IMG/VR virus record: IMGVR_UViG_3300024254_000008
Span: 4,191-68,190 of that record
Source: a virus
Lineage: Duplodnaviria; Caudoviricetes
Reading direction: 5' to 3' (one strand)
DNA: 64,000 nucleotides
This document shows positions 282 to 8,041 of this stretch, piece by piece. A program made the translations under genes and the position numbers. Below the pieces are notes generated by a model. That model searched no databases, had not been told where the DNA came from, and saw nothing but the letters and a program-made list of their open reading frames with translations. The first letter of the stretch is position 1. The number at the start of each line of letters is the position of its first letter.

Positions 282-1682
282 ATGGTCAAGCTCAACATCA
301 AGCCGAAGAACCAGACCGCCCGCGCTGCCGCGTTGCGTCTCAATTCCCACGAGACGCATGGCGGCGCGCCCGCTGCGCACATCGGCGCGCTGGCGCAGCT
401 TCGACGTAGCGTCATGTCGTGCCTGCTGTGGGAGGATGAGCATTACGAATCGGGCGAGAAGATCGCCGACCGCATCGCTCGTCATGCCGCCGAGGTGACG
501 CCGTCTGAGTTGGCGGCAGTCGCCGCAGACGCACGCCATATCGCCAAGCTGCGCCATGTCCCGTTGTGGCTGCTCGTGACGCTCCTCAAGACGGCCAAGG
601 GCCAGAGGTCCCTGATCGTCGATGCGATTGACGACGTGATCCAGCGTGCCGACGAGCCGGGCGAGTTGCTCGCCATGTACTGGAAGACGAACGGCAAGGA
701 TGCGCCGTTGTCGAACCCGCTCAAGCTGGGCCTCGCCAAGGCGCTTCTCAAGTTCGATGCGTACCAGTTGGCGAAGTATGCCAAGCAGGGCGACGTCCGT
801 CTGCGCGACGTGATGTTCCTGACGCACCCGGTTCCCGATTTGACGCGAGGACCGGCGGGTCCGGAATTGTTCCGTCAACTGGCCGAGGACGAACTCTCCC
901 CGACCGACGCCGGGACGTGGGAGGCTGAGCTTTCGGCCGGTGCGGACAAGCGCGAGACGTTCGAGCGCCTGATCCGCGAGGACAAGCTCGGCTATCTTGC
1001 GCTGTTGCGAAACCTGCGAAACATGAGCGCGGCGGGATGCGATCCGGCGCTCGTCAACGCGGCCATCGTCGCGCGGCGCGGCGCGGATCGTGTCTTCCCG
1101 TTCCGTTTCATCGCGGCGGCCCGACACGCGCCGGCTTTCGCGCCGGCCTTGAACGAGTCGATGCTCCAATCGGTCGCTAACCTGCCCAAGCTGCCGGGCA
1201 CGACGGCCGTGCTGGTCGACGTGTCTGGCTCGATGAGCCGCCCACTCGGCGGAAAGTCGGACCTGATCCGGATTGATGCAGCCTGTGCGTTGGCTGTGTT
1301 GGTGCCGGCCGAGACGGTGCGGGTGCTGTCGTTCTCGTCCGGGCTGGTCGAGTGCCAGAACCTCACCCCCGGTTTGCCGGGCATCGAAGAGATCAAGCGC
1401 TCGCAGCCGCACAGCAGCACGAAACTGTTCGAGGCGGTGCAGACGACCAACGAGCGGATCGAGTACGACCGCATCATCGTCATCAGTGACGAGCAGGCGA
1501 CGTACGGCTATTCGGCCGGCATCGAGACGGACTCGTTTCCGGCCCCGAGGCCCGGAGCGAAGGCGTACATGATCAATGTCGCATCGGCGCGCAACGGCGT
1601 CGGATACGGAAACTGGACCCACATCGACGGGTTCAGCGAGAATGTCATTCGGTACATTGCCGCGTGCGAGGCCGAAGGGTGA
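282..1682 (+). CDS. rsr: Ro60/Rsr TROVE-domain RNA-binding protein with C-terminal vWA domain
   Basis: LRRSVMSCLLWEDEHYE, ALLRNLRNM, PFRFIAA, vWA MIDAS DVSGSMS; RBS GAAGGAG. Confidence 0.95.
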   Translation: MVKLNIKPKNQTARAAALRLNSHETHGGAPAAHIGALAQLRRSVMSCLLWEDEHYESGEKIADRIARHAAEVTPSELAAVAADARHIAKLRHVPLWLLVTLLKTAKGQRSLIVDAIDDVIQRADEPGELLAMYWKTNGKDAPLSNPLKLGLAKALLKFDAYQLAKYAKQGDVRLRDVMFLTHPVPDLTRGPAGPELFRQLAEDELSPTDAGTWEAELSAGADKRETFERLIREDKLGYLALLRNLRNMSAAGCDPALVNAAIVARRGADRVFPFRFIAAARHAPAFAPALNESMLQSVANLPKLPGTTAVLVDVSGSMSRPLGGKSDLIRIDAACALAVLVPAETVRVLSFSSGLVECQNLTPGLPGIEEIKRSQPHSSTKLFEAVQTTNERIEYDRIIVISDEQATYGYSAGIETDSFPAPRPGAKAYMINVASARNGVGYGNWTHIDGFSENVIRYIAACEAEG

Positions 1683-1885
1683 TCCCGCAGGAAGACTTGA
1701 TTATCGAGATGTGGCCGCCCCGTTCTGTGGGCGGCCAGCAGGTCGGCATTGCGACAGGCGTCAAGGTCACACACACGCCGACGAACCTGATCGCCATCTG
1801 CGCCACGGAGCGGTCGCAGCATCGGAACAAGCAGATCGCCATCGATATGATTCTTGGCGGCCTCACAAGTCCACATTACCGCTAA
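1679..1885 (+). CDS. Stand-alone minimal GGQ (class I release factor domain 3 / peptidyl-tRNA hydrolase) protein, 68 aa
   Basis: EDLIIE...GGQQV..TGVKVTHTPTNLIAICATERSQHRNK aligns with RF1/RF2 [32 protein letters not shown]; GTG start overlaps the TROVE stop (GTGA). Confidence 0.85.
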   Translation: MIPQEDLIIEMWPPRSVGGQQVGIATGVKVTHTPTNLIAICATERSQHRNKQIAIDMILGGLTSPHYR

Positions 1886-1893
1886 AATAACAG

Positions 1894-1922
1894 TTGCGCC
1901 GGACGAAAGTCCGGCGTAGCCT
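1894..1922 (+). promoter_or_regulatory. Sigma70-like promoter with a palindromic spacer
   Basis: TTGCGC-N17-TAGCCT; GCCGGAC-GAAA-GTCCGGC hairpin spans the spacer. Confidence 0.45.
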
Positions 1923-1960
1923 TGTCTGGCTGAACATCAACCGTCCAAGGAGACAGTCAA

Positions 1961-2257
1961 ATGTGTGCCCCGATGAATGAGTCCGTTTTCGACCGTATCC
2001 GTGTTGAGATCGCCCGTGGCCGTCGTGCCGCTGGCCTCGATGCCCCGGCCGTCCGAGTTCCCGATCATGTCCGACCGATCACCGCCGATATCTCGACGCC
2101 GAACCTACTCCGCTCCGCGATCAAGGCCCCGCCGGTTCCCCGTTCCGTTCGTGCCGTCGACATTCGCACGCCGCTCGGCCGGATCACGTTCTATGTGCGC
2201 CAGCCGGTGCGTGAGCAGGACAACGCCGTGCGGCGAGTGCTCGCCCGCGCGGCGTAA
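1961..2257 (+). CDS. Hypothetical protein
   Basis: ATG with RBS AAGGAG; fills the gap before the tRNAs. Confidence 0.6.
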   Translation: MCAPMNESVFDRIRVEIARGRRAAGLDAPAVRVPDHVRPITADISTPNLLRSAIKAPPVPRSVRAVDIRTPLGRITFYVRQPVREQDNAVRRVLARAA

Positions 2258-2273
2258 GCCGCCGACTGTCTGT

Positions 2274-2351
2274 GTTGGGCGTGGTGGAATTGGTAGACAC
2301 GACTGATTGTGATTCGGTTTTCTGCGGGTTCAAGTCCCGTCGCTCACCCCA
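2274..2351 (+). tRNA. tRNA-His(GUG) with potential G-1:C73 pair
   Basis: Cloverleaf; anticodon loop TTGTGAT; T arm GCGGG-TTCAAGT-CCCGT; encoded CCA; U1.C72 mismatch. Confidence 0.88.
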
Positions 2352-2358
2352 GATTTCA

Positions 2359-2433
2359 TGCCGTGTAGCTCAATGGTAGAGCGGCACCCTGTTAAGGTGA
2401 TGGTTACAGGTTCGAGTCCTGTCTCGGCAGCCA
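2359..2433 (+). tRNA. tRNA-Asn(GUU)
   Basis: Cloverleaf; loop CTGTTAA; U1-A72, G73, encoded CCA. Confidence 0.92.
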
Positions 2434-2434
2434 C

Positions 2435-2510
2435 AGCCCGTTAGCCAAGCGGTTAAGGCATGAGATTTTGATTCTCACATTCCGAGGTTCGAATCCTCGA
2501 CGGGCTTCCA
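2435..2510 (+). tRNA. tRNA-Gln(UUG)
   Basis: AGCCCGT/ACGGGCT acceptor; loop TTTTGAT; T arm CGAGG-TTCGAAT-CCTCG; encoded CCA. Confidence 0.92.
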
Positions 2511-2528
2511 TTTCAAAGGAATCATTTC

Positions 2529-3140
2529 GTGAAAAACAGCCTCTACGTCCACGTCGTTCTCGACAGCAGCGGCTCGATGCTGCGCAATAAATCCACCACG
2601 CTCAAGGCGTGCAATGACTATATCACCGCGCTGGAAGATGGCACGGTCGTCACTGTCGACCGCTTTGCCTACAAGCCACATCGGCTGCGTGACGCCGTGC
2701 CCAAGGCCGAGGCGATCATCACGCCGGATGAATACCCCTGCGACGGCGGCACCGCCCTGTACGATGCCATCGGCCACGCTGTGGCGGCCATCGATGCCAA
2801 GGCCAAGGATTTTGACCGCATCGCGCTCGTCGTCCAGACGGACGGGGCGGAAACCAGTTCGAGCGAATTCAAGCTCGATGCGATCCGGCAAATCCTGCAA
2901 GATAAGCAGGAAGGCGAGGGCTGGCTGATCCTCTATCTCGGTGCCGGGCTGCCGGCTGCCCAGCAGTTCCTTGATCTGGGCGCGACGGCTGGTATGACAG
3001 CGAATTACACGGCCAGCAATTCGCATGATGCGTTTGCCGGCGCGACGCGTGCGACGCAGGCATATGCGGTCAGTTCCAATCGGACGACGGGCCGTACGGC
3101 GGCGGCGTTCACGGCCGACGAGCGGAAGAAGATGGGATGA
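2529..3140 (+). CDS. vWA-domain protein
   Basis: VVLDSSGSM MIDAS, GGTALYDAIG, VVQTDGAETSS. Confidence 0.85.
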   Translation: MKNSLYVHVVLDSSGSMLRNKSTTLKACNDYITALEDGTVVTVDRFAYKPHRLRDAVPKAEAIITPDEYPCDGGTALYDAIGHAVAAIDAKAKDFDRIALVVQTDGAETSSSEFKLDAIRQILQDKQEGEGWLILYLGAGLPAAQQFLDLGATAGMTANYTASNSHDAFAGATRATQAYAVSSNRTTGRTAAAFTADERKKMG

Positions 3141-3961
3141 GCCTTCTCGGCCCCGACGACCGCTTTGCCCTGATCTGCGGCAACAACCGCGAGCATTATG
3201 CCGACGTGGGGAAGGTCGATGCTGTCATCACCGATCCGCCGTACGGGGCCGAGGTTCATTCACCTGTTCGAGCGGCTCGAAATGCTGAGGGATATCTGTC
3301 GGTATTCGACATGCCGTTCGAGCAACTCGATTCTCTCGATATAGGACAACTGGCCAGTTTTGCATCCATTCATTGCAATGGCTGGATGCTGACGTTTTGT
3401 CAGGCCGAGCAATTGGTGCAATGGCGAGACGAAGCAACGGTTTTCGGTGTTCGTTATGTCGTTCCCATGGTCTGGATCAAGCCAGACGCCAAGCCGAATT
3501 TTAGTGGAGCGGGACCGGGAGTCGGGCATGAGAACATCGCCACGTTCTGGTGTGGTGATGGTCCGCAGCATTGGAATGGCGGCGGCAAAGTCGGTGTGTT
3601 TCATCATACACGCGGTCGTCGCGAGGGAACGCGTCATCCAACCGAAAAGCCTGTTCCGCTCATGAAGGAACTGATTCGTCTGTTCACCGATCCGGGCGAT
3701 ATCGTCTTCGATCCATTCATGGGGGCGGGCTCAACGGGCGTCGCGGCACTGGAGCTTGGCCGGCGCTTCATTGGCATCGAGAAGAATCCGGAGTATTTTA
3801 CCGAGGCTGATCGACGTATCCGGGAAGCCGTGGTCCCCAACCTGATCTTCGCATCCAACGATAAGATGCCGACGTTGATGGGGGACACCGAGTTTCCGGG
3901 ACGTCATCACAACGAGCGTTTCCGCAAGGCCGCGAAGGAGAAGAGCGATGCCGACGAGTAG
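3137..3961 (+). CDS. DNA N6-adenine/N4-cytosine methyltransferase (beta class)
   Basis: DPPY catalytic motif N-terminal; HPTEKP and DPFMGAGSTG SAM-binding motif. Confidence 0.93.
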   Translation: MSLLGPDDRFALICGNNREHYADVGKVDAVITDPPYGAEVHSPVRAARNAEGYLSVFDMPFEQLDSLDIGQLASFASIHCNGWMLTFCQAEQLVQWRDEATVFGVRYVVPMVWIKPDAKPNFSGAGPGVGHENIATFWCGDGPQHWNGGGKVGVFHHTRGRREGTRHPTEKPVPLMKELIRLFTDPGDIVFDPFMGAGSTGVAALELGRRFIGIEKNPEYFTEADRRIREAVVPNLIFASNDKMPTLMGDTEFPGRHHNERFRKAAKEKSDADE

Positions 3962-4361
3962 GCAGATTCCTAGTTGGGACGTCACAGGATTTGTTGATAC
4001 TGATCGCACTCAATGGGTGTGGCAGGGAATGGATACAGGCAGCAGCCCGTCAAGATCGGTGTTTTCGCGAGTACCTGCTATCTCTGTTCAGAATCACGAG
4101 ACTGTCTCGCAGACCAGAGAGTCGGATATTGTCCACCAACATAATCTATCTGAATCCTCGATAGAGCTTCTGTTGGCACAACAACTGCACCGTATTTGAG
4201 AATTCGAGGCGGCGGCCTTCAATCTGCGTCGATCTGATCCGCCTGTGACCCGAAGGAGTCGTGGTCCCGAGCTATACACCGATTGCGAGCCGGAAGACCT
4301 TTAGGGGACCTTTCCGGTCCTGCTAGGTTACACGGTGAGCATTCTCAGGAAGGAAGCTTCC

Positions 4362-4646: not shown

Positions 4647-5165
4647 ATGGCCGATTCTACTCGTCTTTTTAGCGAAGAAAAAAGTTTAGCGAGTGCTAGA
4701 CGGCGACTGCTTGCAAATGTTGAGCTTGTTGATCCGCCAGCCGGTATAAAAGGGCAATGCCGGTTATGGCGAGGTTCGTGCAACGATAAGGGATACGGGC
4801 AGCTTCGCGTTCATCGAAAGACAAGACGCGCGGCTCGCGTTGCATATGAATTGTTCAAAGGGCCTATTCCCAAGAGATATGTTCTTGATCATTTATGTAG
4901 ACGTCGTCGTTGTATCAACGAGGATCATCTTGAGCCTGTAACTAATAGAGTGAATCTGCTTAGAGGCAATACGTTCGCCTCGCGCCATGCGATGAAAACA
5001 CATTGTGCCAATGGACATGCATTTTCTGTAGAAAACACGTATTTGTATTCGTGGCCCAAATGGAAAGGGCCCCGCTGTCCCGTACGCATGTGTAGACAGT
5101 GTGTTAAAAATCGAGCGTCGGCCAAGCGCAGAAAGCTCCGAGAGGAGCGGTTGATCTATGCCTGA
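4647..5165 (+). CDS. HNH homing endonuclease upstream of terL
   Basis: CRLWRG..KGYG..RVAYELFKGPIP..LDHLCRRRRCINEDHLEPVTNRVN; C-terminal KTHCANGH. Confidence 0.9.
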   Translation: MADSTRLFSEEKSLASARRRLLANVELVDPPAGIKGQCRLWRGSCNDKGYGQLRVHRKTRRAARVAYELFKGPIPKRYVLDHLCRRRRCINEDHLEPVTNRVNLLRGNTFASRHAMKTHCANGHAFSVENTYLYSWPKWKGPRCPVRMCRQCVKNRASAKRRKLREERLIYA

Positions 5166-7626
5166 CATTGTGGACACGCTTAGTCGTGCCACTGCTGCTG
5201 ACATTGCCTTTTTGGATTCTCAGCGGAAATGGCATGATCTAGCCCGACATAATCAGATATTGCCTCTTGATGGGTGGTCAACCACGCTTGCTCTTGCTGG
5301 AAGAGGATTTGGCAAGACCCGTGTCGGAGCCGAATGGTGTTTGCGACAGGCCGGGCTGTATCCCGGAATCATGATTCATGTTGTTGCACCCACATATTCC
5401 GATTTGCGTGGCGTTGTGTTTGAAGGCAATTCGGGGCTCGTCGCTGTTGTGCCAAAAGCCTGTGTCCGATCACTTACATATTCGCCTTACCCAGAAATGA
5501 TTTTGTGGAATGGTTCCATCATCCGAGGATTCTCGGCCGATACGCCGAATCGATTGCGCGGCCCGCAGGCATCGATGGTATGGGGCGACGAGTTGGCGGC
5601 GTGGTATCACGCTGAGGAGTGTCTGAACAATATCGACTTCTCGACTCGTATCGCCTACCGCCATGTCAACGGCCGGCTGATTCAGCCACAAAAGCTCTAC
5701 ACGACCACGCCGCGCCCGATGCAGCTTCTCGTCAAGATGATCGAGAAGAAATTGCCGAACGGCGATCCGGCAACCGTCTTGATCCGGGGCTCGACGCTCG
5801 ATAATCGCGCGAACCTCGCCGAGAACTTCTTTACCGATCTGCTGCAGTACGAAGGCACGCAGATCGGCCGGCAGGAAATCTATGGTGAGCTTCTCGATCT
5901 GGCCGAGTCGGCGATCATCAAGAAAAGCTGGCTCAATGTCTGGCCGAGTGACGTTCAGTTGCCGTGGTGGGAATTCATCATGGTGTCGATGGACACGGCG
6001 TTCACCGAGAAGACCTACGACCGCAAAACGTTCTCGTCCGATCCGACTGCCTGCACGACGTGGGGAGCCTTCCTGCATGAGCCTGTGAAGGGCAAGGGAG
6101 CCACGTGGAACTTGATCCTGATGGACTGTTGGGAGAAGTGGCTGGGCTTCCCGGACCTCATCACAGAGGCCCGCAAGATGATGCAGGAGACACGGTTCAA
6201 GCGCCGGACCAAGCCGATCTTCGAGCCGTTGGTTGGACCGGTGTTTGCACAGGATGAGATCAAGAAGGCCGACCTTCTGATCATCGAAGACAAGGGCTCT
6301 GGTATCTCGCTGCGGCAGATGCTTTCAAAGGAAGGGTTGGACTCGTTCCCCTACAATCCGGGTCGGGCTGACAAGCTGAGCCGTCTTCACTCGGTATCGC
6401 ACATTGCCCGGCATGGTCGCATCTGGGTGCCTGAGACGGCGGACCGGCGGACCCGGACCACCGATCTGAGCGGCAAGACGGTCATGAAGCCGACGACGTG
6501 GGCGGAGCCGCTGCTGTCGCAGCTATGCTCCTATTCCGGTCCGGGAACGACACCACATGACGACTGGGTAGATAGTTGCATCGTTAGTGCAACCATTATT
6601 CGCATGGGGGATGGTACTTCTCGCTGTGTTTCAGAAGTGCGAGCAGGGGAAATGGTAGATACGCCTATTGGTCCCCGCCGCGTGCTTCAAGCAGGAGTTA
6701 CCGGCATCAAGTCTATTTGGCGTCTTGAGTGGAATGGGGGACAATTGGAAGGAACGGGCAATCATCCGGTATGGGCAGATGATACATGGTGTAGGCTTGA
6801 CTCGTTGAGTCAAGGGTCTATCATGAGAACATGGCCTTTCCAAAAAAACCCGGCATTCGAGTCGAAACTGTCGTCTTCAATGGTTATCGATACAACAGAT
6901 ATCCTGACTCATCGAGTCCTACGCATCGGCGTTACTTTGGTCGCACTGGCCATCGTCTTCACCGCGATGTGTGGGAATATCATAAGGGGCCTATTCCAGA
7001 AGGCCATGACGTCCATCATCATGACGATGATACTAGCAACAACGATATATCCAATCTTCGTTGTCTGCCCGAGGAAAAACACATCGCGCGCCATCGGAAA
7101 GCCAATGTTGGAAGAGGGCGCCGGCCGGAACAACTTGAGCATTTGGCCCGAATTAACAGTAAAGCGGCTGCGTGGCATCGTAGTCCCGAAGGCCGTGAGT
7201 GGCATCGTCAGCACGTTACGGAGAGCCTTCGTAAAGAGGGGGCTGCAATCCCTTTTTCCAGACTCAAGAAGCACAGACGTAAATGTATCTGGTGCGATAA
7301 ATCATACTGGGCGAAGCTCGACCGCGCCAAGTTCTGTAGTTCGCGTTGTCAGAGTCAAGAATCTCGGCATCGACGCAAAGGTCTACAATCTTCGAGTTGA
7401 GGAGGCGGAGTGCTATTATGCTAATGGCATCTTGGTGCACAACTGCACGCAGGCGTGGCGGGTATTTGCCGACCGCTTCGTTGCAGACGGCGTGACCAAG
7501 CGGATTGGAGTTGACGACGCCATGATCCAAGTCATGCTGCCCGAGAACAATCCGGAATTCGAGTATAGCTACGATATCGAATCGGGCCGGGCGACGCCTC
7601 GTCATGTCGTTGCACCCTATGATTGA
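5158..7626 (+). CDS. terL: Terminase large subunit, intein-containing
   Basis: Walker A AGRGFGKT, Walker B WGDELAAW, RLRGPQ, nuclease SMDTAF and HDDWVDS/CTQA interrupted by an intein. Confidence 0.95.
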   Translation: MPDIVDTLSRATAADIAFLDSQRKWHDLARHNQILPLDGWSTTLALAGRGFGKTRVGAEWCLRQAGLYPGIMIHVVAPTYSDLRGVVFEGNSGLVAVVPKACVRSLTYSPYPEMILWNGSIIRGFSADTPNRLRGPQASMVWGDELAAWYHAEECLNNIDFSTRIAYRHVNGRLIQPQKLYTTTPRPMQLLVKMIEKKLPNGDPATVLIRGSTLDNRANLAENFFTDLLQYEGTQIGRQEIYGELLDLAESAIIKKSWLNVWPSDVQLPWWEFIMVSMDTAFTEKTYDRKTFSSDPTACTTWGAFLHEPVKGKGATWNLILMDCWEKWLGFPDLITEARKMMQETRFKRRTKPIFEPLVGPVFAQDEIKKADLLIIEDKGSGISLRQMLSKEGLDSFPYNPGRADKLSRLHSVSHIARHGRIWVPETADRRTRTTDLSGKTVMKPTTWAEPLLSQLCSYSGPGTTPHDDWVDSCIVSATIIRMGDGTSRCVSEVRAGEMVDTPIGPRRVLQAGVTGIKSIWRLEWNGGQLEGTGNHPVWADDTWCRLDSLSQGSIMRTWPFQKNPAFESKLSSSMVIDTTDILTHRVLRIGVTLVALAIVFTAMCGNIIRGLFQKAMTSIIMTMILATTIYPIFVVCPRKNTSRAIGKPMLEEGAGRNNLSIWPELTVKRLRGIVVPKAVSGIVSTLRRAFVKRGLQSLFPDSRSTDVNVSGAINHTGRSSTAPSSVVRVVRVKNLGIDAKVYNLRVEEAECYYANGILVHNCTQAWRVFADRFVADGVTKRIGVDDAMIQVMLPENNPEFEYSYDIESGRATPRHVVAPYD
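6831..7400 (+). CDS. HNH endonuclease nested in the intein in the -1 reading frame
   Basis: RLHRDVWEYHKGPIPEGHDVHHHDDDTSNNDISNLRCL...H; C-terminal CIWC...FCSSRC zinc motif. Confidence 0.9.
   Translation: MAFPKKPGIRVETVVFNGYRYNRYPDSSSPTHRRYFGRTGHRLHRDVWEYHKGPIPEGHDVHHHDDDTSNNDISNLRCLPEEKHIARHRKANVGRGRRPEQLEHLARINSKAAAWHRSPEGREWHRQHVTESLRKEGAAIPFSRLKKHRRKCIWCDKSYWAKLDRAKFCSSRCQSQESRHRRKGLQSSS
6843..6849 (+). other. Candidate -1 frameshift heptamer A_AAA_AAC
   Basis: Intein-frame codons CAA AAA AAC; a -1 shift enters the HNH frame. Confidence 0.45.
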
Positions 7627-8041
7627 CGTTGACGTTTCCGGTAAAACAAGGGACGATGTTCGGGTAGGCATTGCAGATGCTCAGGAGGGACCTTTCAAGG
7701 AGTTGCGCCGGACGACTCTAGCAACCAACTTCGCCTGCGGCCTGTTCCGTCAATCCCTGTCCCTCGCGCCGGTCCAGCGTAGCGTTAAGGGTAAGGTGGA
7801 GAATCCGGCAATTTATGGAGGAAAGTGCGTGGCGGTAATTCCCGATGACGATTTGCTGGAGATGCGCCGTATCCTTCGGGTCTGCGCCAACCAATTCAAG
7901 CGGTTTGAGCGCGCGGAGCGGGCCAAGGTGGCCAACAGTCCCCTGTCGCTGGTCGAGGCGCAGGAAGCACAGGCGGCGGCCGACCAGCACCATGCCTTCA
8001 TTGAGGCATGCGAGAAATATGCAGCGCCCGATGAACATTGA
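7619..8041 (+). CDS. Hypothetical protein
   Basis: ATG overlapping the terL 3' end. Confidence 0.6.
   Translation: MIDVDVSGKTRDDVRVGIADAQEGPFKELRRTTLATNFACGLFRQSLSLAPVQRSVKGKVENPAIYGGKCVAVIPDDDLLEMRRILRVCANQFKRFERAERAKVANSPLSLVEAQEAQAAADQHHAFIEACEKYAAPDEH

Follow-up and report, generated by a model that had tools for sequence, protein, structure and literature searches.

An HNH_3 endonuclease gene overprinted on a phage terminase intein is probably translated from its own start codon

An intein in the gene for the large terminase subunit (terL), with an HNH endonuclease gene read from the same DNA in another frame, is a layout already known in phages. In Brucella phage Tb (NC_019446, 2012), terL gp07 is annotated 'intein present' and the HNH coding sequence (CDS) gp08 is nested in it, and the out-of-frame HNH in the terL intein of Brucella phages Tb and Pr (Perisivirus) was discussed by Tevdoradze et al. 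2015 (PMC4422536). Gosselin et al. 2025 reported the layout as well, and proposed that it originates when an intein is invaded by a free-standing endonuclease gene; a text search of their preprint found start codons, ribosomes and frameshifting unmentioned. For ShiLan-type HNH genes, leaderless initiation has been proposed by Arsenault et al. 2025 (PMC11855218). Here we analyse a terL gene of this kind in a stretch of 64,000 nucleotides (nt; hereafter the window), which covers positions 4,191 to 68,190 of IMGVR_UViG_3300024254_000008, a 68-kb IMG/VR virus record from soil. An earlier reading of the letters alone (the original prediction) had suggested that terL ribosomes enter the HNH frame by -1 slippage, had named an internal ATG as another possible start, and had doubted that the layout was new, a doubt that was justified. 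We find that the intein is contiguous and open in its own frame, that a complete, same-strand, out-of-frame endonuclease open reading frame (ORF) fills its endonuclease slot, and that this nuclease is very probably translated from its own start codon, ATG 6831.

The HNH ORF is read in the -1 frame of terL (+2 offset), and both frames are open over 570 nt. It starts 255 nt after the start of the intein, and its TGA stop falls 43 nt before the end of the intein, within block F. The encoded protein matches Pfam HNH_3 (PF13392) with an E value of 1.2e-16 and 60.5 bits against a cut-off of 24.8, matches phrog_15471 'HNH endonuclease' at 5e-23, and carries a C-terminal CxxC...C...C zinc ribbon. All invariant or near-invariant columns of a 27-sequence alignment are kept in the window protein (H44, H62, H63, N70, N71, N75, H84, H88, C152, C155, C169 and C173). 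AlphaFold models the HNH frame with a mean pLDDT (predicted score on the local distance difference test) of 91.6. The top Foldseek match of this model in the Protein Data Bank (PDB) is I-HmuI (1u3e; probability 0.94), which we take to be a member of HNH_3; the match is weak (E 0.079, template modelling (TM) score 0.27), and the search of the PDB gave no match at E <= 0.001.

Both splicing halves of the intein are preserved around this gene. Along the terL ORF, Terminase_6N covers residues 45-260, Terminase_6C residues 368-474 and Hint/Intein_splicing residues 473-762, and the insertion point lies just after the conserved HDD..VD motif of the terL nuclease domain, where intein-less relatives read HDDLVD followed directly by C or S. 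The block A nucleophile Cys1 (6577-6579) is invariant among 38 aligned relatives, as are T60 and H63 of the block B motif TGNH (6754-6765, intein residues 60-63) and the terminal N289. The block F/G end of the intein reads ...VYNLRVEEAECYYANGILVHN and is followed by Cys+1 at 7444; the +1 residue is C, S or T at all loci. In the AlphaFold model of the intein frame, residues 1-88 have pLDDT values of 96-98 and residues 250-289 values of 90-98, and Foldseek matches these folded parts to the Ssp DnaB and Mtu RecA mini-inteins with probability 1.00 and target TM scores of 0.7-0.88. Cys1, TxxH, blocks F and G with His-Asn and Cys+1, and the Hint fold are all present, and the element is a class-1 intein. 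Its middle is of another kind: residues 91-245 are predicted at pLDDT 38-49 without secondary structure, and a family-profile search found no endonuclease domain there. Because terL is essential and all splicing residues are retained, the terL intein is expected to act as a mini-intein and to splice. The intein with blocks A, B, F and G, the intact HNH ORF ending in block F, and a middle that has no endonuclease motifs and reads like an off-frame translation had all been claimed in the original prediction, and all were recovered here.

The same layout recurs widely. A scan of viral contigs with a profile of the HNH family gave more than 570 matching stretches, and 81 loci were examined, namely the window plus 80 kept from the profile scan and one found earlier. 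At 78 of the 81, the HNH ORF is wholly nested in an ORF of 700-1180 amino acids (aa) one frame away, and the third frame is open for just 2-152 codons. All nested loci have the intein at one terL site, after HDD..VD and before C, S or T, with blocks A, B, F and G present. Moreover, not a single stop interrupts the terL frame in any of the 71 distinct nested copies, with ~1.9-2.6 expected per copy, as against 1-12 stops in the corresponding frame of every one of eight free-standing relatives. These loci are related to one another, so that the counts overstate the number of independent events. For the window itself, 13-20% of the synonymous reshuffles that keep the HNH amino acids also leave the terL frame free of stops; an open frame is here only mildly unlikely because the HNH protein is poor in stop-prone dipeptides. 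Hence the open terL frame of the window alone is only suggestive, and the weight comes from the family-wide pattern.

Cultured phages are among the carriers. Tetrasphaera TJE1, Clostridium phiCDHM19 (gp2), Acinetobacter Highwayman and Rhodobacteraceae LS06-2018-MD07 each have an HNH_3 gene nested in the -1 frame of terL; their records annotate 'terminase large subunit' only, and the nuclease gene is missing. Clostridium phi CD119 was also among the matches to the family search, at the level of a match only. The record of LS06-2018-MD07 shows two separate 'terminase large subunit' CDSs, 1-488 and 1119-3167 of the locus, with a small ORF between them, and this split of terL upstream of the intein-bearing part may reflect a further interruption, e.g. 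an intron or a split gene.

The pattern of substitutions distinguishes the two frames. In close pairs, differences at HNH codon positions 1, 2 and 3 are 0.036, 0.034 and 0.120, i.e. third positions of the HNH frame change ~3 times faster, and in pairs at 30-40% nucleotide divergence they are 0.29, 0.22 and 0.53. HNH codon position 3 is position 2 of the terL frame. In pairs of the 30-40% class, the HNH frame retains an amino-acid identity of 0.65 and the terL frame one of 0.38. Since the differences follow HNH codon phase, the terL-frame linker is not conserved as a protein, and the substitutions indicate that protein-level selection acts on the HNH frame only, the terL frame being merely constrained to stay stop-free. 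A comparison of frame-specific substitutions among homologues had been suggested with the original prediction, which had spoken of dual selection; of this, the maintenance of an open terL frame stands, and selection on both proteins does not. In the intein-frame alignment, the linker shows recurrent Thr/Ser-rich 'conserved' positions, e.g. STTxTxT; these are the +1 reading of His, Asp and Asn codons of the HNH motifs, so that they carry no meaning at the protein level. Coordinates of all features are collected in Table 1.

Table 1. Features of the terL intein locus, in coordinates of the window
Feature	Position	Strand	Basis
terL precursor ORF, 822 aa (N-extein, intein and C-extein)	5158..7626	+	Pfam-type domain matches
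N-extein, 473 aa, C-terminal end ...HDDWVDS	5158..6576	+	alignment of relatives, domain matches
Intein, class-1, 289 aa	6577..7443	+	blocks A, B, F, G
Intein N-terminal splicing half, residues 1-88, blocks A and B	6577..6840	+	alignment, AlphaFold, mini-intein matches
Sigma-70-like motif TTGACT-N16-TATCAT within intein codons, -10 ending 6 nt before HNH ATG (candidate)	6797..6824	+	promoter scan
HNH_3 endonuclease gene, 189 aa, with predicted own ATG, -1 frame relative to terL	6831..7400	+	Pfam, PHROG, alignment, AlphaFold
A_AAA_AAC heptamer, in register with terL frame	6843..6849	+	sequence reading; judged incidental
Linker of the intein frame (residues 91-245 of the intein), the HNH gene read off frame	6847..7311	+	predicted disorder
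C-terminal splicing half of the intein with blocks F and G, last residues ...YYANGILVHN	7324..7443	+	alignment, AlphaFold
C-extein, first residue Cys+1 (CTQAWRV...)	7444..7626	+	domain matches, alignment

Some further observations concern the surroundings of the locus. Another, unrelated HNH_3 gene (4647-5165, + strand, 172 aa; Pfam 1.8e-10, phrog_826 5e-40) is the immediate upstream neighbour of terL, the two overlapping by 8 nt at the terL start; it could be a packaging-associated HNH of the phage or another free-standing homing gene. We rejected the idea that the nested HNH is a recent copy of this upstream gene, as only the HNH core aligns (E 0.002). On the minus strand, a terminator-like hairpin with a T-run is found at 6847-6863, where the T-run is what the A7 run (6842-6848) reads on the opposite strand; one such hairpin was found vs 1.2 expected, and it is probably incidental. 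A blastn search of the region against cultured phages gave no DNA match.

Several lines of evidence bear on how the nuclease is expressed. The one sequencing run listed for the sequence is a DNA metagenome of soil, perhaps its source, and no RNA run was among those listed. Of 69 distinct relatives, 66 begin the HNH frame with ATG, at a homologous position marked by a common N-terminus (MAF[PK].K...), and a Shine-Dalgarno match of at least 4 nt is found 4-20 nt upstream of it in 56 of the 69 (81%) vs 24% of background positions. This family-wide start position agrees with the earlier suggestion of ATG 6831 as an independent start, and through such a start the proposed uncoupling of nuclease dosage from terminase dosage is supported as well. 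The HNH gene of the window is without a Shine-Dalgarno site; elsewhere in this phage genes are preceded by one, e.g. GAGGAG before terL. The -10 element of the candidate promoter listed in Table 1 is so placed that its 6-nt spacing would put the predicted transcription start on the A of the ATG, giving a leaderless transcript. Among 66 distinct entry regions, 36 have a sigma-70-like motif 1-34 nt upstream of the ATG, where such motifs occur in 2.9% of background windows and synonymous resampling of the intein codons yields 8.4 loci (~4-fold enrichment). The motifs fall into two classes, with the -10 ending either 21-34 nt upstream, in which case the leader holds the Shine-Dalgarno site, or 6-8 nt upstream. 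In addition, of the 12 members that have no Shine-Dalgarno site, 8 show a TANNNT box whose end is 5-8 nt ahead of the ATG, vs 1 of the 54 that have one (p = 7e-7). Two designs of expression are apparent from the comparison, one with a promoter, a leader of ~20-25 nt and a Shine-Dalgarno site, and the other, seen in the window, with a -10 element 6 nt before the ATG and a putatively leaderless message.

Other explanations of how the HNH frame is read differ greatly in probability. That two compensating indels mask an ordinary in-frame intein-HNH fusion, an outcome named with the original prediction as one that would undo it, is already refuted: over 6400-7650, a 54.5-kb Logan contig from a soil metagenome (word depth 17) shows neither a difference nor a gap, being an independent assembly but, since it may share the sample of the window, not independent data, and the -1 layout with both frames open recurs in related viral loci and in cultured phages. 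Slippage of terL ribosomes by -1 at A_AAA_AAC, which would tie nuclease output to a fixed fraction of terL translation and join the protein to the N-extein plus the N-terminal intein half, is very unlikely even though the site has the expected form. The terL frame does read CAA AAA AAC at 6841-6849, as had been pointed out, so that a canonical heptamer stands in register; its position is 12 nt past the ATG and beyond the last stop of the -1 frame (TGA 6798-6800), and the missing Shine-Dalgarno site would also suit this route. Yet in-register X_XXY_YYZ heptamers occur at the entry of only 7 of 69 distinct relatives, a rate close to the ~6% expected from background density, and these seven vary in sequence and position; their frequency in members without a Shine-Dalgarno site (3 of 13) vs members with one (4 of 56) does not differ significantly (Fisher p = 0.12). 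Relatives with the most similar N-termini (MAFPRKPGIRV, MAFPAKPGTRV and MAFPRIPGIRV) have non-slippery codons at this spot (CCG CGA AAA CCG, CCA GCA AAA CCC and CCC CGC ATC CCA, respectively) together with strong Shine-Dalgarno sites. No stimulatory structure was predicted in the 88 nt downstream, which fold like shuffled sequences (minimum free energy -16.2 vs a shuffle mean of -15.4 kcal/mol, z = -0.30). Moreover, the frameshift product would be without blocks F and G and unable to splice, and the absent Shine-Dalgarno site is better explained by the leaderless geometry common to seven other such members. The heptamer arises from the HNH Pro-Lys-Lys codons CCA AAA AAA and is probably a coincidental by-product of them.

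With its own start codon preferred for the nuclease, a second question is which transcript carries it. Internal initiation at ATG 6831, with the long late transcript of terL as the message, no promoter of the gene's own and the motif as a by-product of codons, is an alternative that we regard as unlikely, albeit less so than slippage, and the evidence that speaks for it also speaks against the leaderless route. The promoter motif of the window appears in 43% of synonymous resamples and is itself weak evidence, because conserved Leu-Asp and Ile-Met residues of the intein predispose to such a motif; the -35-like TTGAC stems from the generic intein Leu-Asp motif GWxRLDxL; and simple promoter scans of the 1.3-kb region gave 2 matches vs 1.0 expected, which is not significant. 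Against internal initiation stand the family-wide excess of motifs over synonymous resampling and the exact 6-nt spacing between -10 and ATG, which is tied to the absence of a Shine-Dalgarno site. Furthermore, internal initiation without such a site is inefficient on a heavily translated mRNA in bacteria that use these sites, and this phage has them before other genes. On balance, we give a leaderless mRNA from an internal promoter roughly even chances. A broader proposal, that the intein N-domain codons hold two interchangeable expression designs which make the nuclease independent of terL, perhaps with other timing, and that the nuclease is perhaps also kept as a terminase-associated factor, is put forward only tentatively and seems to us doubtful.

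What the separately initiated nuclease does can be approached from its relatives. Its place in the endonuclease slot of an intein and its I-HmuI-like family make homing at intein-less terL the default reading. Intein-less terL genes with a free-standing HNH homologue beside them do exist. In two of the loci examined, L040 (1366-3567) and L050 (1316-3567), an intein-less terL of 532 aa is followed directly, before the portal gene, by a free-standing homologue with 3 stops in the +1 frame, and in Acinetobacter BP10 the free-standing homologue lies before terS next to an intein-less terL, its relative Highwayman having the nested form. Free-standing copies between terL and portal are also found in Pseudomonas PAE1, FBPa53, Sphaerotilus SN1 and Lactobacillus CL2, as in L040 and L050, and in Salmonella PhiSTP1 the copy sits between convergent terL and portal genes. 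Such copies beside terL fit the idea, already in print, that inteins are invaded by free-standing endonuclease genes. Identities of HNH and extein co-vary among the 67 loci compared (r = 0.87); some pairs have ~50% HNH identity with ~16% extein identity, and related inteins occur in terL genes with just 7-17% identity over the last 300 N-extein residues. No near-identical inteins in divergent terL, as expected of recent transfer, were found among these 67 loci; given this and the correlation of identities, ongoing homing is not demonstrated in the sample. Taken together, the comparisons speak for transfers that are old and for descent that was mostly vertical among the sampled loci.

The same vertical co-descent with the extein is one reason to consider that the nuclease is no longer, or not only, selfish and serves as a terminase-associated packaging or DNA-processing cofactor, like HK97-type HNH proteins. 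Free-standing relatives always adjoin terL, purifying selection on the HNH has been long-term, and Tevdoradze et al. 2015 (PMC4422536) brought up such a role for the nuclease of the Brucella phages. We nonetheless consider such a role improbable as the explanation for this gene: it sits exactly in the endonuclease slot of the intein, its apparently I-HmuI-like HNH_3 fold and its zinc ribbon are typical of homing nickases, the presence of inteins in terL genes of such low N-extein identity implies transfer, and another HNH gene already lies directly upstream of terL.

A mini-intein terL with a separately initiated, overprinted HNH gene is the best explanation overall, and we hold it with good confidence. 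In this mechanism, terL ribosomes would read straight through ~155 codons of structureless linker, after which the two Hint halves would associate and splice the terminase. What is canonically an in-frame endonuclease slot would instead hold a separate gene in the -1 frame, whose product, an HNH_3 nuclease resembling I-HmuI and bearing a zinc ribbon, would be translated from ATG 6831. The most likely route in the window would be a leaderless mRNA starting at or next to A6831, independent of terL, and the nuclease would most probably be a homing endonuclease that nicks or cuts intein-less terL between HDD..VD and C. The original prediction is thus partly supported: its overprinted nuclease with a separate start stands, and its programmed frameshift is not supported.

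The locus is a case of natural overprinting, in which 570 nt inside an essential gene encode both a folded nuclease and a stop-free, harmless linker. It supports the view of intein evolution in which the splicing domain comes first and the endonuclease invades later. Many phage terL genes, among them those of cultured Clostridium, Acinetobacter and Tetrasphaera phages, contain a nuclease gene that standard annotation leaves hidden. If the nuclease has its own promoter, its production would not depend on terL and might fall in another phase of infection. Since the layout itself has been described, the added value of the present analysis lies in the size and spread of the HNH_3 family, in the free-standing copies that serve as a natural control, and in the two apparent expression designs.

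Compared with the known systems, the window shares with Brucella phages Tb and Pr an essential terL with an intein, a complete same-strand HNH gene out of frame, and an open terL frame. It differs from Tb in the nuclease, which in Tb belongs to PF01844 with a C-terminal HNH and N-terminal zinc ribbons and in the window to HNH_3 (only the HNH core of gp08 aligns with the window HNH, E 0.016), in the offset, which is +1 in Tb and -1 in the window, and in the position of the intein, which lies in the ATPase half of terL in Tb (residues ~181-506) and in the nuclease domain in the window. As in the loci of Gosselin et al. 2025, the slot read in frame gives no recognisable structure and a His-Me-finger nuclease fold comes from the alternate frame, and the frame relation, judging from their description of it as 'frame 3', is the same; their nuclease is Endonuclease VII-like, whereas that of the window is HNH_3/I-HmuI-like, and the hosts differ too, the window family being carried mostly by uncultured environmental phages together with Clostridium, Acinetobacter, Tetrasphaera and Rhodobacteraceae phages. 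The insertions of ShiLan type that Arsenault et al. 2025 (PMC11855218) describe in DNA methylase genes of mycobacteriophages likewise hide an overprinted HNH and keep the host frame open, but this element has no intein splicing domain, and its insert is thought to remain in the host protein as a loop. In fractured genes, as described by Dassa et al. 2009 (PMC2677866), splicing function and endonuclease are also separate products of one locus; there, however, the host gene and intein are physically split and act by trans-splicing, in contrast to the contiguous intein overlapped by the nuclease gene in the window. Finally, I-HmuI (PDB 1u3e), the weak top structural match of the window HNH, is an intron-encoded HNH nicking homing endonuclease of Bacillus phage SPO1; it resides in a group I intron and has no C-terminal zinc ribbon, whereas the window HNH resides in an intein and carries one.

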